53,376 nucleotides of DNA from Patescibacteria group bacterium (GCA_028865725.1 JAGWJP010000001.1:1-53376); one strand, 5' to 3'; positions 25,228 through 38,451 are shown, counted from the stretch's first letter. Notes: generated by a model not told the origin, from the sequence alone. Translations and numbers: made by a program.

Positions 25228-25238
25228 AGAATAAACCC

Positions 25239-25260
25239 AAAAACGCCGGAAGGCGTTTTT
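25239..25260. terminator. Hairpin terminator (bidirectional)
   Basis: AAAAACGCC-GGAA-GGCGTTTTT. Confidence 0.6.
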
Positions 25261-25374
25261 GGTGCGGAAATCAGCGAAAATCAGTGGACTACGATGGAAT
25301 TCGAAGAATACGTGCGAAATTATCGTACCTTCGCAAATCTGTTGCCTGTGGGGGTTCTGGATTCGAATTTTTAA
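25260..25374 (+). repeat. attL-like junction copy 1: degenerate tmRNA-3'-end-like TGGTGCGGAAA plus a conserved tail-coding arm
   Basis: Related to 25877-25972. The frame reads ...WTTMEFEEYVRNYRTFANLLPVGVLDSNF* with its stop at 25372-25374. Confidence 0.6.
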
Positions 25375-25397
25375 ATTAAGTATGGTTAAATTGAATT

Positions 25398-25829
25398 ATG
25401 AATTTTGAGACATTGAAGCAAGAAAATTTGGAAGGAGAACAGATACAAGAAATCGAGCTTGGTTACGATGATATCGTAAAGATGATCCCCGTGTTTAAGA
25501 AATATGGAATTTTGTATCATGGAACTTCGTCATCCATGATCGAAAGAGAAGTGCTTTCTCCCGATACTACATATGTGATAAGTGAAAAGGGGAGGAAAAA
25601 GAATCTCGATAAAGTTTTTCTTACTAAAGATAAAGGTTCGGCGTGGATTTATGCAAAACGTGCGGCTAATTCCTACGGTGGTGTTCCAAGAGTTTTGGAT
25701 GTGGTGCCACAAGGATCAGTAGACGTAATCAATGATGGGAAGGGAACATCAGTTTTTGCTGCACCTCGCGGTATCGTGTTGAGTAAACGTCTTGAACGGA
25801 TATTGGAAGATTTATCGGCAAAAGAATAA
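25398..25829 (+). CDS. Hypothetical protein (possible minimal ADP-ribosyltransferase/Tpt1-like fold)
   Basis: 143-aa ORF. ILYHGTSSS...KVFLTKDKGSAWIYAKRA...PRVLDVV loosely parallels the LYHGT...VHLS...A..VG.R...V.L.V pattern of Tpt1/KptA. The similarity is weak. Confidence 0.5.
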   Translation: MNFETLKQENLEGEQIQEIELGYDDIVKMIPVFKKYGILYHGTSSSMIEREVLSPDTTYVISEKGRKKNLDKVFLTKDKGSAWIYAKRAANSYGGVPRVLDVVPQGSVDVINDGKGTSVFAAPRGIVLSKRLERILEDLSAKE

Positions 25830-25876
25830 ACTTTCGACATATCAAAAAACCCCTCGCGTGTGGGGAGTTTTTTGTA

Positions 25877-25972
25877 ACTGGTGGAAATCCGTGGACTACA
25901 ATGGAACTCGAAGAATACCTAAGAAACTACGCAAAATTCGCAAGTCCGTTGCCTCATGGGCTCATGGCATGA
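25877..25972 (+). repeat. attL: 11-bp core ACTGGTGGAAA plus P' arm
   Basis: The core is identical to 38091-38101. It is preceded by a hairpin and U-run (minus sense) that looks like a displaced tmRNA terminator. The arm contains TGGAACTC, inverted relative to GAGTTCCA at 38073-38080. Confidence 0.7.
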
Positions 25973-25989
25973 CCTTCTTACCGTTAGTT

Positions 25990-26604
25990 TCAGGAAGGGA
26001 AATCGTACTTGTTTCTAAGAAAGTCACCGATTATATCAATCGACGCATCTATTTCTTTACTGAAATCATCTATTTCTTTGTCGGTTCTAAGTTCGTAAAT
26101 AATCTCAAAAATTTCTTTATGTCCTCTAATTCGTTTATCCACTGGTCGCAAATGATCAGAAACAGCCAGATTGAGCCTTGTTACACATGTTCGTAGAGGT
26201 TTTATTTTTTCTACAACATCTTTTCCCCATAATATTTCTCCCTCAAGTTGCTCTGCTTGTAAGTCAGACAATGCTTCAACCATCTTTTCCCAACGCATGC
26301 GATAGACAGCGTTTGTTGTACCTACGCTTTCTTCAAAGTATTTGCGTTGCGCTTCTTCGGACTCTGAAGGGAAAATTGCTGGGTTCCTAACATAACCCAC
26401 CGCATCTCTCAATTTTAGAACGGCTCTATAGAGTCGGCGAGCTGTGTCATATTCAACATGTCCTTTAATTTGTTTTTTCCATGTAGAAAGTCCTTGGTTA
26501 GCAACCCAAAGACCGCCTCCTGCAATTCCTAGGTAAACGATATCTTTTAAGAAAAGATAGTTTGAGCTATTTATTAAATTTGTGATCCATGTATTTGGAT
26601 TCAT
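25990..26604 (-). CDS. Hypothetical N-terminally TM-anchored helical protein (operon gene 4)
   Basis: 204 aa with TM segment IVYLGIAGGGLWVANQGL. Its start lies 5 nt after the upstream stop. Confidence 0.6.
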   Translation of the reverse strand: MNPNTWITNLINSSNYLFLKDIVYLGIAGGGLWVANQGLSTWKKQIKGHVEYDTARRLYRAVLKLRDAVGYVRNPAIFPSESEEAQRKYFEESVGTTNAVYRMRWEKMVEALSDLQAEQLEGEILWGKDVVEKIKPLRTCVTRLNLAVSDHLRPVDKRIRGHKEIFEIIYELRTDKEIDDFSKEIDASIDIIGDFLRNKYDFPS

Positions 26605-26609
26605 ATTTG

Positions 26610-27269
26610 CTAACGTTGCATTAAATTGATGATTTCTTTTATTGCCAGCTTTTTAATTTTTTCTTTAGTATCGTTTTTTAATTCAAGCGTTTTCCAATGA
26701 TCATACCGACATCCGATTTCTCCGTTGACATTTTTATTGAGTTTATACATCTGTTCACAGACTTTTAGTGTATCTTTGTAAAATTGCTTTACGCTGAACT
26801 GTATGTGAATTATGTATGGTTCTCCTGTTTTTTCAATCCCACCTTTTACGAAACGAAGACGATTGTGCGATGTACCTGTAAGTTCAAGATGACCTTTTGT
26901 AAGCCAATTGGGTGTAAGGCTCCAAGAAATTTTTATGTCTTCAAAATAGATTTCCCTCAATGTATCTGTATGAATTAACGAATGTCTGTAAATACAAATA
27001 AGCAATGCGGCTACTTCTTTATAAGTCTCATTACAGGTTACATAGTTCTCGCTCAGTATTCTGTATAAGTTGGTGGATGAATCTTCACCGTAGATTAGAT
27101 CTCCAAGGGATTCGGCTATAGGAAAAAGCATACGCAAGAATGCTGAATAAATATGGAGAGGTTCTTTCCTTTTTTCTACATACTTAAGAAATGCTCCAAC
27201 CTCTCTATGTAGGTTTTCTCCTACATTATAAAAAGCTTGGGCATCGGTAGTGGATTTGTATGTTGTCAT
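26610..27269 (-). CDS. Hypothetical protein with Rx4H (HEPN-like) motif (operon gene 3)
   Basis: 219 aa with a helical N-terminal half ending in YRHSLIH (codons at 26987-26970). The family assignment is inference. Confidence 0.55.
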   Translation of the reverse strand: MTTYKSTTDAQAFYNVGENLHREVGAFLKYVEKRKEPLHIYSAFLRMLFPIAESLGDLIYGEDSSTNLYRILSENYVTCNETYKEVAALLICIYRHSLIHTDTLREIYFEDIKISWSLTPNWLTKGHLELTGTSHNRLRFVKGGIEKTGEPYIIHIQFSVKQFYKDTLKVCEQMYKLNKNVNGEIGCRYDHWKTLELKNDTKEKIKKLAIKEIINLMQR

Positions 27270-27277
27270 TTTTTTTC

Positions 27278-27643
27278 TTATTTATGTCTACGGGTATTGA
27301 ACATAAACCCGCACATTACTAATATTCCTGTGATTAAAATAAGTTCTATGGAGTTAATAAATAATGCTAGTAAAGCAGTACTTGTCGCAAAGATAGGGAA
27401 AATCATTGTATTTTCATGAAAATCTTTCATCGTTTGGAAAATATAGCCTACTATCAAGAGACTAATTCCTGTTATAAATAAATGATGATTGACACCAGCT
27501 ATTGCGTACTCAATTTTATTCGAATCGGTAAAATAACCGCTGTTACTTTCTTTAATAGAAAAGGCAAGAAAAATAGAACCTAGGAAAGAGGATGCAGTGT
27601 TTAAAATACTATAGATTTCTTCCTTGGTAAGATCAATTCTCAT
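27278..27643 (-). CDS. Small 3-TM membrane protein (operon gene 2)
   Basis: 121 aa with three hydrophobic segments. The gap to the next gene is 8 nt. Confidence 0.55.
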   Translation of the reverse strand: MRIDLTKEEIYSILNTASSFLGSIFLAFSIKESNSGYFTDSNKIEYAIAGVNHHLFITGISLLIVGYIFQTMKDFHENTMIFPIFATSTALLALFINSIELILITGILVMCGFMFNTRRHK

Positions 27644-27663
27644 AAGTTCGTCAGAAAAGATTT

Positions 27664-28278
27664 TTAAGAATTAGGTAGTGTTGCTAAATATTGGTCTGTT
27701 AAATATAAAACGCCAGTATCTGGCAATTTGGGTAGTTCTATTTTATCTATAAAACCATATTTCTGAGCTTCGGTTGCCGTATAAGTCGTAGTTTTTAAAA
27801 AAGCTTGTTTAATAGTCGCAAGAGATAATGGTTTTTTGCTTCTGGATGATGTCTCCTTATGAATTATGTTTTGCGTTTTTTCATCTATAGCGGATAAACT
27901 TGCTCTTTGAGTATCAATATCAAAAACATTAAATTGTTCTGGAAGAACATCTCTCGATAATGTTGTTTGATGAATCATAAAATCACAGTTAGGAACTCCT
28001 ATTCTATTCTGAAATCCTAAAAAGAATGGAACGCCAGCAGATGATACGTTACCCATGTTATATACCGTTGTCTTTTGAGGTATTGATTTAATAAAATTGT
28101 ACAGATTAACTGCATAAAATGGATTTCCTCCGAGCGTTGAAAGGTAGATGATATACTCTGAAATCTTTTGCTTTGGATCTTGCGCTTGGTTACAAATGAA
28201 TCCGATTAAAACGTCTTCCATTTTTTTAGTAATCAAAGCGCTACACCATATATGTTGAATTTTAAGTTCGTCGTTCAT
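27664..28278 (-). CDS. ClpP-fold serine peptidase-like protein (operon gene 1)
   Basis: IIYLSTLGGNPFYAVNLYNFIKSI...TTVYNMGNVSSAGVPFFLGF...DFMIHQTT...EAQKYGFIDKI parallels ClpP LYINSPGG...G.AASMG...IMIHQP...EA.EYGLID. The Ser and His positions are retained. Confidence 0.7.
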   Translation of the reverse strand: MNDELKIQHIWCSALITKKMEDVLIGFICNQAQDPKQKISEYIIYLSTLGGNPFYAVNLYNFIKSIPQKTTVYNMGNVSSAGVPFFLGFQNRIGVPNCDFMIHQTTLSRDVLPEQFNVFDIDTQRASLSAIDEKTQNIIHKETSSRSKKPLSLATIKQAFLKTTTYTATEAQKYGFIDKIELPKLPDTGVLYLTDQYLATLPNS

Positions 28279-28375
28279 ATTGTGAGATATTATCTTACAT
28301 TTTTATAAGTTAGGCAATGATAATTTGTCGGTTTGAAAATAATAATTTTTTATGGCAACATAAGGTCAATAAAAT

Positions 28376-29353
28376 ATGGCTAGGATTATTTCGAATAACA
28401 AGGAATACTCGCTCTACGACTTCGATAACGAAGCTGAATTTGAAAAGGCAGTTATCGAAAATCAGAAGTATCTTTTTGGGAAGGATTCCGTCTATATTGA
28501 TGTAAAGCGAAGAATCGGACGTGACAGTCATCGTGGCATACCTGATGCTTTTTTGATTGATTTTTATGATACGAAAAAACCACAACTGTATATTGTGGAA
28601 AACGAATTGGCATCGCATGACGTGTATTCGCATATTTCTGAACAAATTGCTCGGTTTAGCGCAAGCGCTTTGACGTCCCCAAATCAGATACGCGATATGC
28701 TTATCAAGGCAGTAGAGAATGAACCAGAAGTAAAAGGGGAAATAGAAAAGCATCTTTCTCAAACTATTTTCAAAACAATTACAGAATTAATGCTTCAGCT
28801 TACCGAAAAGGAGGATATTAAAATTGTTGTTGCAATAAACGATGATACAGAATTAGATCTTGCTTTTAGGGTTTTTAAGAATCCTCCCGATACGGTTATC
28901 TTGCAACGCTATATGTGCGGGGATGATATTTCCTACTATTATGAACCGATGCGAGAGGAGATTGAAGATATTGAAATTGGAAAAAAGAAAACTGGTGAAG
29001 CGGTAGATTTTGATACGGTTGTTTGTGCAGCTTTCGAAGATGGGTTTAAACATGCATACATGGAAAATAATGCATGGTGGGCGATCAGATTATCTCAAAA
29101 AGCTCGGGAGCAGTTAAAATATTTGGCTATCTACGAAAAAGCCCCGATTGCGCATATTAGTCATTATGCTGAAATTGAGCGCATAGAACCATACAAAGAT
29201 ACGGGTAAGTTCATTTTGTATTTAAAGAACAAGAAAACTGTTAAACCAATTAAACTTGGTACAGGTAAAAAGGGGGAGGCACCACAAGCTCCTCGTTACA
29301 CAACGCTTGGTAAATTATTAAATGCTGAATCGGTCAGTGAGCTTTGGGGTTAG
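28376..29353 (+). CDS. PD-(D/E)xK-like nuclease-fold protein with C-terminal beta-rich (PUA/EVE-like?) domain
   Basis: N-terminal GIPDAFLIDFYDTKKPQLYIVENELASHD resembles NucS/Shedu-type cores (G.iD...vvE.K) but has E-N-E in place of E-x-K. The C-terminal LKYLAIYEKAPIAHISHYAEIERIEP...PIKL resembles PUA-like readers. Both assignments are inference. Confidence 0.5.
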   Translation: MARIISNNKEYSLYDFDNEAEFEKAVIENQKYLFGKDSVYIDVKRRIGRDSHRGIPDAFLIDFYDTKKPQLYIVENELASHDVYSHISEQIARFSASALTSPNQIRDMLIKAVENEPEVKGEIEKHLSQTIFKTITELMLQLTEKEDIKIVVAINDDTELDLAFRVFKNPPDTVILQRYMCGDDISYYYEPMREEIEDIEIGKKKTGEAVDFDTVVCAAFEDGFKHAYMENNAWWAIRLSQKAREQLKYLAIYEKAPIAHISHYAEIERIEPYKDTGKFILYLKNKKTVKPIKLGTGKKGEAPQAPRYTTLGKLLNAESVSELWG

Positions 29354-29387
29354 AAAACAGGTATAAATTGAATTACTTAGAATAATT

Positions 29388-29415
29388 AAAAGAGACACTA
29401 TTAGATGTCTCTTTT
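29388..29415. terminator. Bidirectional terminator hairpin
   Basis: AAAAGAGACA - 8 nt - TGTCTCTTTT between convergent genes. Confidence 0.55.
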
Positions 29416-29429
29416 AATGCAGTAGGTTG

Positions 29430-29957
29430 TTATTTGTCTGCTGAAACAGGAAGACCTAATTTTTGTAATGGAAGATAGTTGAAATAATATTGACATCCGA
29501 CAGAGATAACATAATCGAGCGTATCTTTATATTCAGGCTTTTTAAACCAATCATTCAAAATATAAACATATTCAATCTCGATATTTAAGGGCGCAAATAA
29601 TTTCTTATATTGTTTTTTCTTGAAATCACAGGTTTGCAATTTTTCGTCTACGGAACCAGCAACTTTCTGGAATTTCATTTCAATAATAAAGAGGGTATTG
29701 TTTACAATTACATACAGGGCTTCATCTGGAAAAAGACGTTTTGAAATAAGTTTTTTCCAGTCGACATTCTTTTCATTTAATATTTTGTATAACCCCTGTT
29801 TGCGATAACTTCGGGCGACTTCTTTTCCTTGATAGTAGATAATACTGCTTTTGACAGAGTAATCTTTTGCTTTTTTCAGAATCTCTAAAATATCACGTTC
29901 TTTTTCAAAGTTAAGACCCGTTATTGTATTACCTCCGCCAGTTCCTTTTATTTTCAT
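29430..29957 (-). CDS. Type II restriction endonuclease candidate (PD...ExK)
   Basis: 175 aa with FPDEALYV...LFIIEMKFQ (PD-x(n)-E-x-K). It starts 8 nt downstream of the methyltransferase on the same strand. Confidence 0.6.
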   Translation of the reverse strand: MKIKGTGGGNTITGLNFEKERDILEILKKAKDYSVKSSIIYYQGKEVARSYRKQGLYKILNEKNVDWKKLISKRLFPDEALYVIVNNTLFIIEMKFQKVAGSVDEKLQTCDFKKKQYKKLFAPLNIEIEYVYILNDWFKKPEYKDTLDYVISVGCQYYFNYLPLQKLGLPVSADK

Positions 29958-29965
29958 ATAAGTTA

Positions 29966-30775
29966 TTATTTACTGTGTTTTGCAGATAAATTACGGTCTA
30001 ACTCCTCAAATCGTTTTATGGATAGATCTAAGAATTTTGACTCGGTATCAATGCCAATGAAACGACGCCCTAAAAGGTATGCGGCCATTCCTGTAGTTGA
30101 GCTTCCCGTAAAAGGATCAACAACGAGGTCGCCTTTATTTGTTGAGGCAAGTACTATTCGTTTTAACAAATCCTCTGGTTTTTGTGTAGGATGTTTTCCG
30201 AATTTCTTTTCTATGGGTTTTGGTGTTCCCATTGCCCAAACAGAGCGCATTTGTAACCCCGGCTTTTTTAATTGATCCTCCGGCCAGTTACCGTTCTTCA
30301 TTAAATCGTAATTGAAAATATGCTTTGCTTTTTTGTCTTTCCGTGCCCAAATTAAGGTTTCATGACTGGCAGTAAAGAAACGACAGCTTAAGTTTGGTGA
30401 AGCATTCGGCTTAAACCATGCAATATCATTAAGAATATGATATCCGAGCGATTGTAGTGCGTGTCCGCATTGGTAAATTGAATGATAGGTACCGCTAACC
30501 CAGAGCGTACCATGAGGTTTTAAAACTCTACGGCAAGCCTCCATCCATTTATGATGAAAATCATAATCATCCTCGAAACCTTTGCTTTTGTCCCAGTCGC
30601 CTTTATTAACGCTTACCATTCGCCCTGCATGAACAGTCATGCCCCCATTTGAAAGGTTATATGGTGGATCAGCAAAAACCATGTCCACTGAACTTTCAGG
30701 GAGTTCCGCTAATAGATTTAAGCAATCTGATTTATAAAGTTCAAATTTATGTTTTTTATAATACGGTGTTTGCAT
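29966..30775 (-). CDS. DNA methyltransferase, beta-class (N6-adenine or N4-cytosine)
   Basis: Motif IV (VFADPPYN) precedes motif I (VVDPFTGSSTTGMAA). Confidence 0.85.
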   Translation of the reverse strand: MQTPYYKKHKFELYKSDCLNLLAELPESSVDMVFADPPYNLSNGGMTVHAGRMVSVNKGDWDKSKGFEDDYDFHHKWMEACRRVLKPHGTLWVSGTYHSIYQCGHALQSLGYHILNDIAWFKPNASPNLSCRFFTASHETLIWARKDKKAKHIFNYDLMKNGNWPEDQLKKPGLQMRSVWAMGTPKPIEKKFGKHPTQKPEDLLKRIVLASTNKGDLVVDPFTGSSTTGMAAYLLGRRFIGIDTESKFLDLSIKRFEELDRNLSAKHSK

Positions 30776-30931
30776 GATTGTTTTAAAAACGATTTTGAAG
30801 CAGAATTACGATGAATTCATAATATACTTTCTCGTGTTTTTTTAAAACCCTTTTAGCTTTCTTGGTTTCATTGCAAAAGAATTCTACGTATTTTAAAATT
30901 CAAAATTGGAAAACTAAAACAAGAGATTTAT

Positions 30932-31102
30932 GTGAAAAAACAAGAACTCAAGGTTGTATATGAACAAGTAAAAGATGTTTCAGAAGAGGAGACTCGAAGA
31001 AGATTGGATCGAGTTTTTGATATTCTTTTTAATGCGGTATTAGAGCAAGACCAAAAGAAAAATTTGCATCGCAGTCAATCTAGGAAAAATCATAAAAAAT
31101 AA
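30932..31102 (+). CDS. Possible 56-aa ORF (GTG start), hypothetical
   Basis: Encodes VKKQELKVVYEQVKDVSEEETRRRLDRVFDILFNAVLEQDQKKNLHRSQSRKNHKK*. Its 3' end coincides with the first copy of a 23-bp repeat, so it could be a gene remnant. Confidence 0.25.
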   Translation: MKKQELKVVYEQVKDVSEEETRRRLDRVFDILFNAVLEQDQKKNLHRSQSRKNHKK

Positions 31103-31417
31103 GGCAGTTTGCATACAAATACGAACGTGTCTTTTTGCAACACAATAAATCTGGTAAATTCTAGTTTTTAGTTTCTTTGCGTATATAGAGGTATAAAAAC
31201 CAAGAAACTAAACCTGCACTGCGACCATGCAAAGAAAAATCATCAAAAAGAAGGCACTTCGCAATACAATAAAGAGGCATCTTTTTGTCTAAAAAAGTTG
31301 AACAATTGTATAGCGTCCGTTGTAGGAAAAATCATCAAAAAGAAGGTAAAGAGCTATACAATTCTAGTTTTTTAGTTTCTTGGTATATATAGGGATGAAA
31401 AAACTAAGAAACTAACC
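31082..31417. repeat. Repeat cluster: three 23-bp direct repeats and two hairpin units of about 57 bp
   Basis: A(G/A)GAAAAATCAT(A/C)AAAAA(T/G)AAGG occurs at 31082, 31232 and 31324. AATTCTAGTTTTTAGTTTCTT(T/G)G...C(C/T)AAGAAACTAA(A)CC hairpin units lie at 31158-31215 and 31360-31417. Confidence 0.7.
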
Positions 31418-31648
31418 TCTTGGTAAAGAAATCTTCGTAATCTGTTGTCCATCCTGTCCTCCTGACCTAATCTGGCCAAGAGGACAGTAAAGACAGTATT
31501 TTTACAGGTTTACTTCTTACAACGTAGATTTTGCGCTGTAGAAGCGGTGCATACGCGCTTGAATGAATAAACCTTCATTCAAGCAGAGAAGTGCGGCTCT
31601 AATACCTCTCTAGACCCTAGAAAACGCATTTCTAAGTCTTTCGTTAGG

Positions 31649-32587
31649 TTAATAGTAATCTTCTACTGTTATGGTGTAGGAGGTATTCAGGCTATTTAAA
31701 TCAAGATAATATTGGCCTGGTGGTAAAGAATATTGATAGGTACTGTTACTTGCAGGACAAGTAACATCGTTTGCAATTATACCCATTTGGTAACTTGAAA
31801 CTGATCGGATTACGCCGGTAAAACTATTCACCGAATAACTACTATCAGGCACAGAACAAGTATAGTCTATTCGTTGTTTCTCCCCCTGAAGAGCAAAAGG
31901 AGGTGTATTAACGGTTGTTGCACTTCCGTAGGTGTAAGTAACATGCCAGCTTTTTGGTGCTTCAGAAACAGGTTGCTGTGTAGGGGTTGAAGGTTGCGTA
32001 GTTGTTTGCGTTGTCTGGGGTTCGGGTGCTGTTGTTTGCGAAGTAGATGAAACTGATTTTCCTGCTCCTTTTTGGATGATACAGCCTGTCATGCTAGGAA
32101 TCGTAATGGTGAAATTTGCTTGAGATGTATATGTTTTGGAACCAGTGAGCGGTCCGTAGATAGTGACTACGTCATCTTTTACTGCGCTTGTCGTTGTTGC
32201 GTATTCTACATACACGACATCGCTACTACTCCATCCATATGAATCTTTGGTAACCGCAAGACGTATTACTCCTTGCCCGCCCGACTCTTCGATTTGAAGA
32301 ATTTGTCCGGTGAATTTCGCGATCTTACCAGTGAAGGAATCAGAATTCTTATCAAGCTGTTTGAAATCTACCGCTTGCACTTCTGATTTGATATTGCCTG
32401 AACACTGGGAATTTTGGGTAGATTCGGTTGTACTTACTGGTTCCGTGTTTAGATTTGTTTTACTTGCTATACCAACAAGGGCAATAAACATGATGAAAAC
32501 GAAGAATGCGAATAGCACGACCAAGACTGGATTTTGGTTAACCCAGCTTCTCGCACCTGTTTTATGAGAATCGTTTTTTTCTTCCAT
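31649..32587 (-). CDS. Membrane-anchored extracytoplasmic protein with Thr/Gln/Pro-rich linker
   Basis: 312 aa with an N-terminal TM segment (VLVVLFAFFVFIMFIALVGI), a linker TSQTTAPEPQTTQTTTQPSTPTQQP, and two beta-rich domains. Confidence 0.6.
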   Translation of the reverse strand: MEEKNDSHKTGARSWVNQNPVLVVLFAFFVFIMFIALVGIASKTNLNTEPVSTTESTQNSQCSGNIKSEVQAVDFKQLDKNSDSFTGKIAKFTGQILQIEESGGQGVIRLAVTKDSYGWSSSDVVYVEYATTTSAVKDDVVTIYGPLTGSKTYTSQANFTITIPSMTGCIIQKGAGKSVSSTSQTTAPEPQTTQTTTQPSTPTQQPVSEAPKSWHVTYTYGSATTVNTPPFALQGEKQRIDYTCSVPDSSYSVNSFTGVIRSVSSYQMGIIANDVTCPASNSTYQYSLPPGQYYLDLNSLNTSYTITVEDYY

Positions 32588-32697
32588 ATGATATTGAAAT
32601 TAATTTTTTAAACGCGTGTTTTAGCGTTGCTGGGAGTTGTAGGAGCGTACTTCTTTACGAGAATGAGTATCTTATCATTCCGCGATTATACTACTCT

Positions 32698-33204
32698 CTA
32701 AGACCCTCTAAGACTGATAGTTATGGTATTGATGGGTTCTTCACAGAGAATTGAGAGATGACAGGCAGTCTGTATTGCTTTCTCTACGCTTGCACCAAGG
32801 TAGAGGGCAGACAACGCATAATCTTTGCCTGCACCGATCGAGTAGTAGTCCTTAATTTCTCGTATGAAGTACCCCGAAATGAAGAAAACTTTGCCATGAT
32901 ATACGACTAAGAACTCCGCCGTATCAATCGAGGGGGCATTCTTTGCGTTGCTCAAGTAGTCTACGAACTCGCGTATGAGCATCATCCATTCGTATTCAGA
33001 ATTCTGCTTAGGCAGATGGTTCTCTAAGAATTCTTTGAACAAAAACCCTAGTGCACAAGATCCAACTGTTCCTAGCACCATATCGGTGCTGATGCGAGAA
33101 AGCTTCGCGAGTTTATCTTTCTCTTGCGAGAGTCCGCTGATACGGATACTATCTGCTCCAATTACGATTTCTTTTTTCTGGATGCGTACCGCAACAACAC
33201 TCAT
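32698..33204 (-). CDS. HslV/proteasome-like Ntn-hydrolase-fold protein
   Basis: MSVVAVRIQKKEIVIGADS...MVLGTVGSCALGFLFKEF...YYSIGAGKDYALSALYLG parallels HslV TTIVSVRR...VIAGDG...AGFAGGTADAF...AIGSGGPYA. Ser follows the initiator Met where the catalytic Thr normally sits. Confidence 0.6.
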   Translation of the reverse strand: MSVVAVRIQKKEIVIGADSIRISGLSQEKDKLAKLSRISTDMVLGTVGSCALGFLFKEFLENHLPKQNSEYEWMMLIREFVDYLSNAKNAPSIDTAEFLVVYHGKVFFISGYFIREIKDYYSIGAGKDYALSALYLGASVEKAIQTACHLSILCEEPINTITISLRGS

Positions 33205-33339
33205 GAGTTTGTAGTTTAAAAATCTGTTGCTCGACCTTTAGATTTCTAAACTGCAGGATGAGAAAGTAAATAGCGAGTATGTTAATACGATGATTTTTTC
33301 AAGGTTTTTGAAAACACAAAACCTGCTACCAGGAAGGCC

Positions 33340-33417
33340 TTGCGACCCCTGCACAAGTTTCCTTGTGCAACGTGCGATACGCCCTGATAACGGGGTTAAT
33401 ATATCGCACGATTTTTT
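33340..33417 (+). ncRNA. Candidate structured RNA or leader ending in an intrinsic terminator
   Basis: TGCACAAG-TTTC-CTTGTGCA (33350-33369), then CGTGCGATA...TATCGCACG (33371-33410) followed by ATTTTTT. There is no plus-strand gene upstream. Confidence 0.35.
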
Positions 33418-33588
33418 GCCATGCCTCACAAAGAAACGTGAAAAATCTTGCGGGGTTTAGGCAGTACCGTATTCAGTTGTTAGGTTTACGTTAGCATAAT
33501 TTCAGAGAAAATGGAAATAGAAAAAGAGTTGCGCAGATTGTAGAAAATTGGTACATTGCATGCGATATTAAAACATTATTATAAAAAT

Positions 33589-34413
33589 ATGGTATCAAAA
33601 AACAAAGTTTTGCTTGATGACAAATCGAGATTCGTCGAAGTAATAAAGTTATTGCCTGAAAAGTTTGTGAACGATCTCAGAGACTACCTATTTGAAGCTC
33701 ATTTTCCTGTAAGGTATAACGAGGTGTTTTCGAAATATTTCAATAGGTCTGATGAGTTTTTGCTGACGTTTTCAACTTCGAAAATAAACAAAGCGTATCA
33801 AAAAGTAGAGACGTTTTTTTCTAATCTTATAGACTTTTTGAATTCAAATTTTGATATCCCTAAGGGGTACCACCTTAATCCGTTGTATCGTGAGTTGCGT
33901 CCTGAAATAAGTCACAGATTTGGAAAACATGACGCAGAATCTCAGAAGAAATGGGACAAATATAAAAGAGACCTTGATGTTTTGGTAGAAACGTTCGTGG
34001 ACGCATACGGTGATTTTATTCATATTGCGAGAAAGGAAGTTGAGCGCGAAAATGCGATAGCGGAGCCATCGACAAAAAAGGATTCAAAGACCATTCCCGT
34101 AACATTATATCTTAATACTACTGGGGACTTATGGCGGGAACCAAAGGAAAAGTTTTGTTATCCTATAAAGGAAAAAAGCGATAGGCATAAAATCGTCCGT
34201 TACCTCGCAACCCATAAAGGTATTCAGCAAACGCTGGACATGTCCAACGAGTTTGAAGGTAAACCATTGCAGTCAATACGGACTGAGATAGGGAAGATAA
34301 GAGGCGAAATAAAGAAATTCTTAAAAATTGATGGGAAGCGTGTAATTGAAGAAGGTAAAACCGGTAGCGGTTATATGATAGGTCGAGGATGTAAAATTAA
34401 AATAGTAAGATAA
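33589..34413 (+). CDS. Hypothetical protein with C-terminal winged-helix (OmpR/CadC-like) DNA-binding-type tail
   Basis: C-terminal QSIRTEIGKIRGEIKKFL...IEEGKTGSGYMIG resembles the L..LRkKl....I.tvrG.GY wing. ATG 33589 is preferred over TTG 33556. Confidence 0.55.
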   Translation: MVSKNKVLLDDKSRFVEVIKLLPEKFVNDLRDYLFEAHFPVRYNEVFSKYFNRSDEFLLTFSTSKINKAYQKVETFFSNLIDFLNSNFDIPKGYHLNPLYRELRPEISHRFGKHDAESQKKWDKYKRDLDVLVETFVDAYGDFIHIARKEVERENAIAEPSTKKDSKTIPVTLYLNTTGDLWREPKEKFCYPIKEKSDRHKIVRYLATHKGIQQTLDMSNEFEGKPLQSIRTEIGKIRGEIKKFLKIDGKRVIEEGKTGSGYMIGRGCKIKIVR

Positions 34414-34451
34414 TCGTTTGCTATTCCTCTCATATCGTTAATAAGTTTTCG

Positions 34452-34480
34452 AAAAACGGCTGGAAATCAGCTGTTTTTTG
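34452..34480 (+). terminator. Intrinsic terminator
   Basis: ACGGCTG-GAAAT-CAGCTGT followed by TTTTTT. Confidence 0.55.
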
Positions 34481-34585
34481 TTTGCAAAAAGTATCAAGCG
34501 ATTATGTAAAGCGTAGGACTTCGTTTGCTAGAAATAAAGCAGAGTTTAATGGTCGTTATGCATTAACTAATAAATAATAATTAAT

Positions 34586-36262
34586 ATGTCAGATAGTGAA
34601 AAAGAAGGTGGGGCAGTCGCTGAGATTATTGAGGCAGTCGTAGAAAAAGTCGAACTTTTTCATGACCAAGACAGCAATGGCTACGCATTAGTTATTGGAG
34701 ATGGGAACGTTATGAGGATCGGGTCTTCCGAATTTTCAAATTATGTTTCCTATATAGCATGGGAATGTGTCAATAAAGCTCTTACAACATATGCACGCGA
34801 TGCGGTGATAGCTACTCTCGAAGCAAAAGCGCGTTATGAGGGTGATTCATATAACCTTTCTATTAGGACAGCATGGCATGAAAATGCACTTTGGTATGAC
34901 CTTGGAAAAAAGGCAGTACGAATTGATGAAACGGGATGGAAAATTATTGATGAGCCACCCATCTTATTCAAAAGGTTTTCGCATCAGTTACCGCAAACAG
35001 AACCTGTTTCAGGTGGTGTTATGAATGATGTTTTAAGATTTCTAAACATTCCGCTTGTGGGCGAGGAGAGAGATGAAATGTCGATATTAATTTTAACCTA
35101 TCTTGTTTCTGTACTTATTCCTGACGTTCCTAGACCAGTACTTGTGATACATGGTCTTCCTGGTGCGGCGAAATCGACATTTTTCAAGGTTATTAAGAGT
35201 CTTATTGATCCTTCACAGCTTGAAACAATGACGTATCCGAGGGATTCTGTTCAATTGATACAAATTCTTTCGCATCACTTTTCTATTTTTTTCGACAATA
35301 TTTCCGAGCTTGATGATTGGCAGTCCGATGAACTTTGCAAGGCCGTTACCGGACATGCATTTAGTAAACGAAAACTTTTTACGGACGATGATGACATTAT
35401 GTATAGATATAAGCGCGCTCTCGGGCTTAACGGAATCAACCTTGTTACTACGAGGTCTGATTTGCTGGATCGTTCGCTTATCTTCGAACTTCAACCGATT
35501 TCAGGAGGAAAACGTCTTATTGAGGAAGCGTTTTGGAACGAGTTTGTCGAGGAGAGACCGAAATTGCTAGGTGCTTTATTTTCAACGGTTTCTCTGGCGA
35601 TGAAATTCAAAAAAGAAGGAAAGGTTGTTTTAAGGAAAAAACCGAGGCTTGCAGACTATGCATTGTGGGCAGGGGCTGCTTCGTTAGCGCTTGGTTACAC
35701 CGTTGAATATTACGAAAATGCGCTCGCAAAAAATATAGATAAACAGAACGAAGAAGCGATTGATTCAAGTCCTATTGCACTCGTGGTGCTGGATTACATG
35801 GAAAGGCACAAGGTAGGAGTAGAAGTTAAGATGAGTTCAAAACAATGGTTCGATGTGCTGTTGGAAAGGGCGAAGGATCTTGGGTTTGAGAAAGATAAAG
35901 AATTTCCAAAGACACAAGGATGGCTTTGGCGCAAAATAAAACCCGTTAAAGCAAACCTCAAGAATATTGGTATAGATACAGAATATTTCAGTAAAGAGCG
36001 TCCGCGACAAATTGCCATAAAAAAGAACGCGAAGATTTCTAGTGGCAATACTGTCATAAATAGTACGAATCAATTTGGCATTGATATGACAGTAAGGACA
36101 GTAGAGACACCAATTTCTACGGAACCACCTAAAGGAGTAATTACTGTTGTTGAATATGAATCTGGCGAAGAACCGGAGGATGTAGGGAATGATAATAACT
36201 ATGATGATAAAAGTACGGAAGATTACGATTTGGATTCATACGATGAGGGTCAGTATATATAA
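34586..36262 (+). CDS. P-loop NTPase of the phage/plasmid primase-helicase (SF3/D5-like) kind; probable element replication protein
   Basis: Walker A VIHGLPGAAKST and Walker B-like SIFFDNISELD. The size and the acidic C-terminal tail are typical of integrative-element replication proteins. The family assignment is inference. Confidence 0.55.
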   Translation: MSDSEKEGGAVAEIIEAVVEKVELFHDQDSNGYALVIGDGNVMRIGSSEFSNYVSYIAWECVNKALTTYARDAVIATLEAKARYEGDSYNLSIRTAWHENALWYDLGKKAVRIDETGWKIIDEPPILFKRFSHQLPQTEPVSGGVMNDVLRFLNIPLVGEERDEMSILILTYLVSVLIPDVPRPVLVIHGLPGAAKSTFFKVIKSLIDPSQLETMTYPRDSVQLIQILSHHFSIFFDNISELDDWQSDELCKAVTGHAFSKRKLFTDDDDIMYRYKRALGLNGINLVTTRSDLLDRSLIFELQPISGGKRLIEEAFWNEFVEERPKLLGALFSTVSLAMKFKKEGKVVLRKKPRLADYALWAGAASLALGYTVEYYENALAKNIDKQNEEAIDSSPIALVVLDYMERHKVGVEVKMSSKQWFDVLLERAKDLGFEKDKEFPKTQGWLWRKIKPVKANLKNIGIDTEYFSKERPRQIAIKKNAKISSGNTVINSTNQFGIDMTVRTVETPISTEPPKGVITVVEYESGEEPEDVGNDNNYDDKSTEDYDLDSYDEGQYI

Positions 36263-36421
36263 ATTGAAAAGGCGCTTGTAATTGACAATCTGCTGTTTAC
36301 GTTTTCTGGTAAGTATGGAAGATTAAGAAAAACACCATGTTATATCAGATAAAAAGATATTGCGTTCACGCGTTACCTTCCGTAATTTGTGGATTCTGCG
36401 AGAAAGAGCGTCAAAAAAACT

Positions 36422-36559
36422 ATGGAAGACAGTATTCTCATAGAACGAGAAAAAAGAGAGGACGACATGCTCGAAAAAATCGCGCGCGTCATGCTTCTCA
36501 TAGCGGAGTTTCAAAGAAAGAAGGAAGAAGAAATTAACAATAACGATAACAATTTATAA
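36422..36559 (+). CDS. Possible 45-aa ORF abutting the recombinase start (accessory/RDF candidate)
   Basis: Encodes MEDSILIEREKREDDMLEKIARVMLLIAEFQRKKEEEINNNDNNL*. The stop lies 1 nt before the recombinase ATG. Its composition looks more protein-like than the two overlapping track ORFs. Confidence 0.3.
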   Translation: MEDSILIEREKREDDMLEKIARVMLLIAEFQRKKEEEINNNDNNL

Positions 36560-36560
36560 T

Positions 36561-38114
36561 ATGCGCGCATTAATTTATTTGAGAGTTTCAAGTGAAGGGC
36601 AGGCGAGAAAGGAAAATCCTATTTCTACTCAAAAGAACGCTTGTTTGGAATTTGCGCGCAGGAATGGATATGACGTTGATGAGGCACAGGACATATATAT
36701 AGATGCGGGCATTAGCGGACGATCGACAAAAAGTAGAATTGCATATCAAGCGATTATGGAACGGATGAAAACAGACAAAAATGTTGTCGGCATCGTTGCA
36801 TACGATACGAGTCGTATTTCAAGAAATCTAATGGTCTATCTGCAATTTAAGGAACAGTTGAATAAATACGGCAAGAAATTTTTTTCCATTACGGAACCTC
36901 ACTTTAATGACGATAATCCAGTATCAAAACTTATGGAAAATATGTTGGCGAGTTTTGCCGAATTTCGTTCTGGACAGGATGGAGAAAAAATTAGTGCGGC
37001 GATGAAACAAAAAGCGGAGTCAGGTCTTTATGTCGGCCTGGCTCCTTATGGGTACAAGAATGTAAGGGGACAAGACTATGGAGGAAAGGAAAAACGATGG
37101 ATTGAAACAAACCCTATAACCGCACCAATCGTTAAAGAAATCTTTGCAATGTATACGACGGGACGTTATTCGTTGCAACAGGTAGCGGATGAATTAAATA
37201 GGAAAGGATACGCTACCTCGAACAAAAAACCATGGGTTACAAGTTCTGTGGAGAAGATTCTTAAAAACAAGGCGTATATAGGTCATATCATTTGGGGCGG
37301 CGTAACCAACCCTCATGGCCAGCACGAGAAATTTGTAGACGAGGAAACCTTCTATAAAGTACAGGCATTAATGAGAGCTCGCAATTTTGGAGCAAACAAG
37401 ATGAGAAAGCATACCTTTATTCTTCGAGGGTTTTCCTCTTGCGGGGAATGCGGAAGCAGAATCACGGGAGCATATCATACGAAACCAAATGGAATGAAGT
37501 ATTCATATTATCAATGTCAACGAAGACAGCATGCGAAACCTGTTTCATGCAAGCAATCTGTTGTCGCTATCGAAGAATTAGAAAAACAGTTGCTTAAACT
37601 GATTAAGACCATTCAAATACCCCATTCAACCGCATTGCGTTTGGAGGAGAAGATAAAACAGGTGGTTCAAAAAGACAAAGGACCCACCGATGACATGAGA
37701 AAATCGTTGGTCATTCAGTTAGAAAATATTGCAGGAAAAAAGAAATCTTCCCTTGAAAAATATGTGGAGGGGAATATCAGCGATGATGCCTACCGTACCT
37801 TCAAACTGGATTTAGAAGCAAGGGAGCTTCAATTGAAGGCTCAATTAGAAAAAGTAGACGACACCATTTCAGGCATTGTAGCGCAAATAGAAACCGCAAT
37901 TGGACTCGCGAGAAACTGCTATAAAACGTATAAAACTGCCTCCTATGAACAAAAAATTCTGCTTGCGCAGACATTCTTTGAGAAGGTTATCATTAAGGAT
38001 CGTACCATCCAAAATGCCTTTCTAAATCACCCATTTGCCTATATTTGCCAAGAGAAGGCGAAGGCGAAAAGGGAGTTCCAATATCAGTATACTGGTGGAA
38101 ACGGCGGGAGTTGA
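36561..38114 (+). CDS. Large serine recombinase (integrase)
   Basis: MRALIYLRVSSEGQ catalytic-Ser resolvase domain, a recombinase domain, the zinc ribbon CGECGSRITG...YYQCQRRQH...C, and a coiled-coil region. The last 22 nt overlap the tmRNA 3' end on the opposite strand. Confidence 0.9.
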   Translation: MRALIYLRVSSEGQARKENPISTQKNACLEFARRNGYDVDEAQDIYIDAGISGRSTKSRIAYQAIMERMKTDKNVVGIVAYDTSRISRNLMVYLQFKEQLNKYGKKFFSITEPHFNDDNPVSKLMENMLASFAEFRSGQDGEKISAAMKQKAESGLYVGLAPYGYKNVRGQDYGGKEKRWIETNPITAPIVKEIFAMYTTGRYSLQQVADELNRKGYATSNKKPWVTSSVEKILKNKAYIGHIIWGGVTNPHGQHEKFVDEETFYKVQALMRARNFGANKMRKHTFILRGFSSCGECGSRITGAYHTKPNGMKYSYYQCQRRQHAKPVSCKQSVVAIEELEKQLLKLIKTIQIPHSTALRLEEKIKQVVQKDKGPTDDMRKSLVIQLENIAGKKKSSLEKYVEGNISDDAYRTFKLDLEARELQLKAQLEKVDDTISGIVAQIETAIGLARNCYKTYKTASYEQKILLAQTFFEKVIIKDRTIQNAFLNHPFAYICQEKAKAKREFQYQYTGGNGGS

Positions 38115-38451
38115 ACCCGCATCCAAGTAGGTTGACTCATTACTTCTACAGAATCCTAGTTAATTTAGTAGTACACGTTATGCTTGAAAATTAACAAAAC
38201 ACAAAACGCACGCGCTTCGTTAGTGTCGTGGTGTGCGGTGAAGCTCAAGTCCTCACACCATCTATCTCGATGTATGAAGCCCCTGTCTCGTATCGAGCGT
38301 AAGAGAAGGGACTACCCGACATTAAGCAAATGCCAATGCGGGTTGCCTATTAGATAAGTTGGCAGTTATGACTTTGCCTGTTGTTCGAAGGTGCAAGCAA
38401 ACCCTATTCAGCGTAATGATTCGCGAATACTTGTCGAAGCCCAGCGTTCCC
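38093..38451 (-). ncRNA. ssrA: tmRNA (SsrA), one-piece
   Basis: 5' GGGAACGCUGGGCUUCGAC and 3' GGAUGCGGGUUCAACUCCCGCCGUUUCCACCA. The acceptor stem has G3:U70. The tag reading frame GCC AAC ... GCU UAA (38363-38322) encodes ANLSNRQPALAFA*. smpB is adjacent. Confidence 0.9.

Follow-up and report, generated by a model that had tools for sequence, protein, structure and literature searches.

Attachment sites that lie inside a gene, with a C-terminus that is switched by integration, are known for the Mx8 integrase (PMC6070905), for SSV-type integrases (PMC8371274) and for the BPs-type repressor (PMC4557955). For Mx8 IntP/IntX, as PMC6070905 summarises the work of Tojo et al. (1996) and Magrini et al. 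(1999), attP lies within the integrase coding sequence and integration yields a recombinant gene with a new 3' end; by the same summary, the prophage integrase differs in its C-terminus without being inactivated, and a change in the activity of the prophage form has been shown. In the mycobacteriophage BPs and its relatives, which have integration-dependent immunity, attP lies in the repressor gene and integration removes a C-terminal ssrA-like degron; the BPs integrase, which is of the tyrosine type, also has a C-terminal proteolysis signal (PMC4557955). The SSV1-type integrases of archaea, likewise tyrosine recombinases, have attP in their own gene, and integration partitions that gene (PMC8371274). 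Here we analyse a stretch of 53,376 nucleotides from a Patescibacteria group bacterium (GCA_028865725.1, JAGWJP010000001.1:1-53376; the whole stretch is called the window below), in which a 12.2-kb integrative element occupies the 3' end of ssrA, the gene of the transfer-messenger RNA (tmRNA), and carries a large serine recombinase (LSR) whose open reading frame (ORF) crosses the attachment site. Our best explanation, which we judge moderately probable as a whole, is that attP is laid over the end of the element's own integrase gene, that recombination swaps the C-terminal tail of the enzyme, and that the native tail is translated, weakly selected and has a role specific to one state of the element.

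Simplicity and unidirectional action have made LSRs prized genome-engineering tools, and the control of their direction is still an active question.

The integrase gene and attP occupy the same DNA

The integrase of the window is a large serine recombinase by its domains, its catalytic serine, its cysteine residues and the form of its attP. Pfam places PF00239 (Resolvase) at residues 3-155 (E = 3e-26), PF07508 (Recombinase) at 185-274 and PF13408 (Zn_ribbon_recom) at 288-348; all are domains of the serine recombinase type, and Pfam found none of the tyrosine type. R8 and the nucleophilic serine S10 are invariant across alignments of 32 and 46 homologues, and the zinc-ribbon cysteines C294, C297, C319 and C330 are invariant among the aligned homologues. 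Two long helices predicted by AlphaFold2 (355-402 and 408-451) fit the coiled coil that is inserted in the zinc-ribbon domain of LSRs.

The element sits between two copies of an 11-mer, ACTGGTGGAAA, which occurs exactly twice in the window against 0.03 copies expected by chance (none of 100 shuffles gave two). Read on the minus strand, this core is ...UUUCCACCA followed by GU, which in the tmRNA is the CCA end together with the 3' half of the acceptor stem. Insertion at the 3' end of ssrA has left the gene intact, as in tmRNA islands: the core keeps the CCA end, and the match to Rfam RF00023 covers the whole model (1-374 of 374, 99.5 bits). The SmpB gene adjoins. The attB consists of the 3' end of the tmRNA and the terminator behind it; in the empty site, the terminator now found at 25852-25876 would directly follow the tmRNA on the minus strand. 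Joining 38073-38101 to 25888-25909 reconstructs an attP of 51 bp, GAGTTCCAATATCAGTAT-ACTGGTGGAAA-TCCGTGGACTACAATGGAACTC, whose outer arms GAGTTCCA and TGGAACTC (GTTCCA/TGGAAC) are perfect inverted repeats. LSR attP sites are about 50 bp long with imperfect inverted repeats, as established from phiC31, Bxb1 and A118, and the reconstructed site conforms in its length, in the inverted repeats that flank a central crossover and in sharing only a short stretch with attB.

The same DNA is coding. The P arm supplies the codons for E-F-Q-Y-Q-Y, the crossover region GGTGGA, antisense of the tmRNA acceptor and CCA end, encodes G-G, and the P' arm corresponds to tail codons 1 to about 8. In the integrated state, the ORF of 517 aa has the C-terminus ...FQYQYTGGNGGS and the prophage ending ...YTGGN-GGS; its final codons, GGC GGG AGT TGA at 38103-38114, are three codons and a stop taken from antisense tmRNA, because the tmRNA gene occupies 38093-38451 on the minus strand. 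All three domains and residues 1-514 nevertheless stay in a single ORF. Starting in the core at 25880, translation in the integrase frame yields GGNPWTTMELEEYLRNYAKFASPLPHGLMA up to a stop at 25970-25972, and the rebuilt attP encodes 541 aa instead of the 517 of the integrated state; the recombination point in the gene lies after codon 514 and the excised form regains a tail of 27 aa. This bears out, for the ORF, the tmRNA and the core repeat alike, what a reading of the sequence alone had proposed: an integrase ORF that spans the att core and a 27-aa tail that integration replaces with three antisense codons of the tmRNA. With attP covering the last part of the integrase gene, recombination with attB, to go by the sequence, cuts the gene after codon 514, and excision restores the ORF of 541 aa. 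Coordinates are collected in Table 1.

Related integrases share the layout

A search with the 541-aa protein gave 273 relatives at E <= 1e-10, and the hosts of the named ones are Patescibacteria (Taylorbacteria, Colwellbacteria, Paceibacterota). Nearly all of the 32 closest (35-67% identity) end in ...FQ(Y/L)xxxGG and then D-G-G-(N/S)-(R-T...), which is the antisense translation of the acceptor and T-arm of a tmRNA or tRNA; further relatives end in T-arm peptides of the G[FIL]EP- or xRT-type. ARAGORN places a tmRNA directly beside the integrase in L001, L002, L004, L006, L007, L008, L014 and L036. In two more distant members of the clade (36-38% identity) the integrase abuts tRNA-Ala(tgc) (L039, 11548-11623) or tRNA-Val(gac) (L040, 11550-11624), and the ORFs enter the antisense tRNA, which extends the targets of the clade to tRNA-like 3' ends in general.

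The DNA signature of attP is shared as well. GTTCCA of the P arm stands at a fixed distance from GGTGGA and the core in 12 related loci, and the geometry GTTCC-N14-6 nt-N17-GGAAC is the same in L004, L014, L034, L035, L036 and L041. Both ends of the element can be reached in L004, L014 and L036, where attL consists, as in the window, of a terminator, the core and a P' arm with an equally spaced GGAAC. The attP rebuilt for L004 (integrase P0009, 55% identity to the window) gives the tail CGN-PWIKMELDEYIKVFSVQSL, that for L014 (P0021, 40%) the tail GG-PRKTIQEHIEEWLKEDIIGQKVALQQLARLV of 31 aa, and that for L036 (P0014, 47%) the tail SG-RPLTLLELVKNMQSQVRAQKFQLIERAYSVLQPSFQ of 36 aa. Three other contigs carry an attP-form integrase directly, with the inverted repeat, a long ORF and no tRNA or tmRNA nearby: L034 (P0025, 547 aa, tail ...GGS-RRTLLEYLVRLPQEITQKQMVLLERVYGQVLAMV), L035, which equals L003 (P0028, 599 aa, tail of 83 aa after GG), and L041 (P0125, 553 aa, tail ...CG-VTRSLLEHLLMQVTPAFVDLIERAHAAAIGSDALL). 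All seven independent attP reconstructions and attP-form ORFs have a frame that is open over 20 codons or more. Free relatives with long tails, which the sequence-only reading had expected, do occur on the last three contigs; it had also named the opposite outcome, free forms that end at or before YTGG, and this was not seen, the rebuilt attP of L004, L014 and L036 being open in frame too, a result in favour of the structural claim. The attL of L002, L007, L012, L038, L039 and L040 was not located in the upstream 10 kb at hand. These sequences show the layout of attP over the gene end to be a family trait, ancestral to the LSR clade that targets the 3' ends of tmRNA, tRNA-Ala and tRNA-Val.

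With a narrower family alignment as query, the GTDB genomes yielded only 3 loci and the metagenomes 12, and no relatives were found in IMG/VR. The degenerate pattern GGNPWxxME gave 14 chance matches and no integrase, and the integrase C-terminus with its tail (85 aa) had just one match in a set of 5.8 billion proteins, a prophage-form fragment.

Several members of the family show features of their own. The attP-form integrases of L003 (a 251-kb contig of an Acidobacteriota metagenome-assembled genome) and L041 (24 kb) stand on large contigs beside ordinary-looking genes; this might reflect a plasmid or episome as carrier, or arrival of the element by another route. At the locus of P0013 (L037, 9330-11532) an ORF of 563 aa on the opposite strand separates the integrase 3' end from the tmRNA, and the C-terminal peptide of the integrase is unrelated; the att site appears to have undergone a secondary insertion or a rearrangement. 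Suppressor tRNAs with the anticodon UUA (reading UAA) occur in L004 (2777-2858, minus strand) and in L012 and L013 (6472-6548, plus strand) and hint that some members of the element family reassign or suppress a stop codon; the stop of the L004 tail is TAA. Finally, P0037-P0045, a distant LSR subfamily of about 580 aa, have in common a conserved C-terminal extension of about 70 aa (...LSLSxIKxDLLRLQELLTPEEEAEIESCYYELRGRGLLP).

Is the tail a selected peptide?

The tail has a second, diverged copy in the window (25285-25374), which reads WTTMEFEEYVRNYRTFANLLPVGVLDSNF up to its stop. As the sequence-only reading had noted, 16 of 24 residues are the same in both copies and four codons differ synonymously (ACA/ACG, AGA/CGA, AAC/AAT, TAC/TAT); the repeat search gives 75% nucleotide identity over 83 nt. 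These synonymous differences had been taken as a signature of selection, for which the two copies alone do not reach significance, and the evidence for coding constraint, which is moderate, comes from diverged elements instead. Past the DNA half-site, nucleotide identity is 0.38 between the window and L004 and 0.33 between L034 and L036, about that of random sequence. Over this part the two pairs reach BLOSUM62 sums of +17 and +19 in the integrase frame, whereas the two remaining frames score between -11 and -24; no frame but that of the integrase lacks stops in both sequences of each pair. None of 2000 shuffles reached the score observed for the whole tail of the window against L004 (past the half-site, p = 0.026); L034 against L036 gave p = 0.0015 for the whole tail and p = 0.026 past the half-site, and P0125 against L036 gave p = 0.0012 past the half-site. 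The BLASTP alignment of P0125 with P0025 (31% identity overall) likewise continues through the tail. By these similarities the tails therefore fall into at least two types: type A, NPWxxME[LF][ED]EY[LIV][RK], in both window copies and L004, and type B, [ST]LLExL...L[IL]ER[AV][YH], in L034, L036 and P0125, the last of which came from the phmmer match list of the 541-aa query.

Part of the similarity clearly belongs to the DNA. The first ~22 nt past the core are a half-site, with TGGAAC mirroring GTTCCA at the same spacing in all relatives, and this half-site accounts for much of the similarity in tail codons 1-8/9. It is nonetheless very unlikely that the conserved stretch is altogether a DNA element, such as an extended attP arm or an accessory site for, e.g., a recombination directionality factor (RDF) or a regulator: in-frame similarity stays where the nucleotides have become random, conservative replacements are reached through double nucleotide changes (R to K by AGA to AAG, L to I by CTA to ATT), and the 51 bp of the reconstructed attP already fill the length established for such sites. 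Still less credible is an independent micro-ORF expressed alone in the prophage (MELEEY... from the ATG at 25901, MEFEEY... from that at 25294), an alternative that the sequence-only reading had itself raised. All three type-A copies have the ATG, with a weak GTGGA 5 nt upstream, but it is kept only in these three closest copies and is part of the TGGAAC half-site, its place being taken elsewhere by CAG (L014), TTG (L034, L036) or AGG (L035). Frame continuity with the integrase is, moreover, held in all relatives, a terminator directly precedes the micro-ORF, and the plus strand yielded no promoter-like site.

A translated tail would have its place in the free element. Since only the excised form carries it, and prophage forms, which still have to perform excision, end in arbitrary tails, the native tail can matter only in the free state. 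We therefore favour a tail that would tune the integration-competent, free-form enzyme, while the tail-less prophage integrase would stay competent for RDF-dependent excision. Two ways can be envisaged: (i), the tail could be a C-terminal degron that makes the free-form integrase short-lived, as the non-polar C-termini of free forms and their likeness to the degrons of the BPs repressor and integrase suggest, in an element that has a ClpP-like protease; (ii), it could be an amphipathic helix that favours the attP x attB synapsis, by analogy with the activity change of Mx8 IntP/IntX. A non-polar C-terminal residue is present in 6/7 free-form tails and 7/26 prophage forms (Fisher p = 0.008, post hoc), and the window tail has a strong potential for an amphipathic helix (moment p = 0.003 against shuffles).

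The more serious alternative is that the tail is a neutral by-product. In such a case the need for the P arm and core to match the tmRNA end would have placed attP across the last part of the integrase gene, and the tail would be whatever precedes the next in-frame stop, with no function or selection past the half-site. We regard this as possible though rather doubtful, and a number of results speak for it or against a tail with a selected, state-specific role. The in-window pair shows no codon-position bias, with 7, 7 and 10 differences at positions 1, 2 and 3, and is about equally similar in all three reading frames. Between subfamilies the tails are unlike in length (20 to 83 aa) and sequence; types A and B show no significant similarity, whether with one another or with the tails of L014 and L035, and among the best 150 of 1.84 billion representatives searched by phmmer with the 541 aa, none aligned past residue 520. 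Past the half-site the frame is open for 11-27 codons (74 in one case), with about 16 expected by chance; this being near the chance expectation, ORF length was dropped as support for a coding tail. In the AlphaFold2 model of the 541 aa the body has a mean pLDDT (predicted local distance difference test) of 86, while residues 512-541 stay below 50, with a helix drawn at 518-531; the tail lies outside the folded body and AlphaFold2 gives it no confident placement. Prophage forms bear arbitrary endings of 3-33 aa, and these are tolerated, so the C-terminus of the integrase is permissive. The integrase of L002 (46% identical, next to a tmRNA) stops before the core at VFI, although it is probably an immobilised, decaying copy, to judge from its sequence, because its P arm is degenerate (L002/L011, 11480-11530). 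The 541-aa form of the window element is known by reconstruction, and no excised circle of it has been observed; no RDF was identified among the ORFs of the element, most of which have no family match; and the degron idea depends on a post hoc test with n = 7 free-form tails.

What a neutral by-product explains poorly is amino-acid similarity confined to the integrase frame where the DNA is randomised, together with the type-B motif L[IL]ER[AV][YH] 60-75 nt past the core in three integrases that are 31-38% identical, the enrichment of non-polar C-termini in free-form tails and the seven frames out of seven that stay open. There is thus moderate support for a tail that is coding and under weak, subfamily-specific purifying selection, a flexible appendage beyond the zinc-ribbon/coiled-coil fold.

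The element, its cargo and an older remnant

The host of the element belongs to the Patescibacteria, the candidate phyla radiation (CPR). No capsid or terminase genes were detected among the element genes, and instead of a complete prophage the element may be satellite-like or plasmid-like. That it carries protease genes is notable, given its place at ssrA, the gene behind a proteolysis-tagging system. The LOOT RNA lies in the divergent intergenic region that separates the leftward and rightward gene blocks of the element. A gene-free gap (30775-31649) holds iteron-like direct repeats, spanning 31071-31415, which could be a replication origin or a regulatory array.

Beyond attL lies what appears, from its position, to be the remnant of an earlier related element, pushed away from ssrA by the newer insertion: a decayed attL with its P' arm, and an ORF of 143 aa that is presumably leftover cargo, again by position. 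In the decayed attL (25262-25284) an extra C is inserted in the core, and a 10-nt tandem duplication is present (GGAAATCAG / CGAAAATCAG). The terminator on its left is probably the original tmRNA-proximal host flank, and the right-hand edge of the remnant is another terminator, directly against the active core. Tandem displacement of this kind is the pattern of tmRNA genomic islands (Williams, 2002, as cited in PMC12884075).

Table 1. Features of the window; positions are counted from its first nucleotide.
Feature	Position	Strand	Basis or remark
Bidirectional terminator adjoining the decayed attL	25237-25262	-	terminator prediction
Decayed attL, with P' arm, from a related earlier element	25261-25374	+	mutated core GGTGCGGAAATC, 10-nt tandem duplication, tail copy WTTMEFEEYVRNY...
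143-aa ORF between old and current attL	25398-25829	+	ORF call; no Pfam match
Terminator hairpin and T-run immediately left of the attL core; B arm used by the resident element	25852-25876	+	terminator prediction
Core copy at attL, ACTGGTGGAAA	25877-25887	+	exact 11-bp repeat
Integrative element body, 12.2 kb	25888-38090	.	flanking 11-bp core copies
P' half-site of attP, ending in TGGAACTC, inverted repeat of P-arm GAGTTCCA	25888-25909	+	geometry shared with relatives
Detached integrase 3' end, 27 codons PWTTMELEEYLRNYAKFASPLPHGLMA and TGA	25889-25972	+	joins the integrase frame only after excision (attP form)
ClpP-like protease	27664-28278	-	PF00574, E = 6e-17; also matches PHROG head-maturation protease family
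Possible PD-(D/E)XK nuclease	29430-29957		weak family match
N6/N4 DNA methylase	29966-30775		family match
Iteron-like repeats, 50-nt x3	31071, 31221, 31313		
Iteron-like repeats, 47-nt x2	31165, 31369		
Proteasome/HslV-like protein	32698-33204	-	weak family match
LOOT RNA	33334-33463	-	Rfam RF03000, 75 bits, above gathering score
Large serine recombinase, prophage form, 517 aa	36561-38114	+	ORF, Pfam, alignment, AlphaFold2
P half-site of attP, GAGTTCCAATATCAGTAT, also codons for integrase EFQYQY	38073-38090	+	GTTCCA spacing shared with relatives
Core copy at attR, ACTGGTGGAAA, encoding T-G-G-N	38091-38101	+	exact 11-bp repeat
tmRNA (ssrA), intact, CCA end kept by the core	38093-38451	-	ARAGORN; Rfam RF00023

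Discussion

The overlap of attP with the integrase's own stop in a large LSR clade suggests, as a tentative idea, a built-in sensor of the integration state, in which the tail would act as a degron or an auto-regulatory helix on the excised replicon and make the stability or the direction of the enzyme depend on that state. If true, a C-terminus that is rewritten at each integration and excision would be a new and self-contained way to couple the properties of an enzyme to its integration state, and the sensing of this state would form a layer of directionality alongside a separate RDF, or instead of one. For annotation, the prophage-derived LSR sequences of this family carry a false C-terminus, and the native one can be recovered only by way of the rebuilt attP. 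The targets of LSRs would extend to the 3' ends of tmRNAs and tRNAs, and the element, with its known attB and attP, is a defined integrative element for the CPR/Patescibacteria, where genetic tools are almost absent.

The domain architecture, the short attP of about 50 bp with imperfect inverted repeats and the small identity with attB are those of phiC31, Bxb1, A118 and TP901-1. To our knowledge, attP lies outside the integrase ORF in those four systems and their targets are protein-coding or intergenic. A large LSR survey makes no mention of tRNA or tmRNA targets or of an attP that overlaps the LSR coding sequence (PMC10083194). In the literature that we searched, no LSR with an ORF crossing attP and none at ssrA or tRNA 3' ends was found, which is not proof that none exists. 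The tRNA/tmRNA genomic islands, as described by Williams (2002) and cited in PMC12884075, classically involve tyrosine integrases and a longer duplicate of the 3' part of the gene. The window element is like them in its place at the ssrA 3' end, in the preservation of the gene and in the decayed earlier element in tandem on its distal side; it differs in an identity block of 11 bp and in its enzyme, which is an LSR.

Gene splitting of the SSV type, to which the sequence-only reading had likened the window, is not the right parallel, since the window integrase keeps every catalytic and DNA-binding domain intact: an SSV-type gene falls into two separated parts, whereas residues 1-514, with all domains, are contiguous here. 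Mx8 IntP/IntX is closer. There too attP lies inside the integrase gene and the 3' end is rewritten, as with the 517 and 541 aa of the window, and the relatives P0025, P0028 and P0125 stand in the attP form. The differences are that Mx8 Int is a tyrosine recombinase while the window enzyme is an LSR that targets a tmRNA 3' end, and that the swap in the window concerns only a 27-aa appendage beyond the folded body; the segment replaced in Mx8 is reportedly much longer. BPs shares an attP within a coding gene and the loss of a C-terminal peptide on integration, which makes it a possible model for the window tail. It is the repressor that BPs splits, however, and the integrase that the window element splits; no repressor spanning the att site was found in the window, and the non-polar C-termini only suggest a degron role. 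The tail-swapping layout is known for tyrosine integrases, a serine-integrase case not having been found in the literature searched, and the closest precedents of the window system are Mx8 IntP/IntX and the repressor switch of mycobacteriophage BPs, both of them tyrosine-integrase systems.

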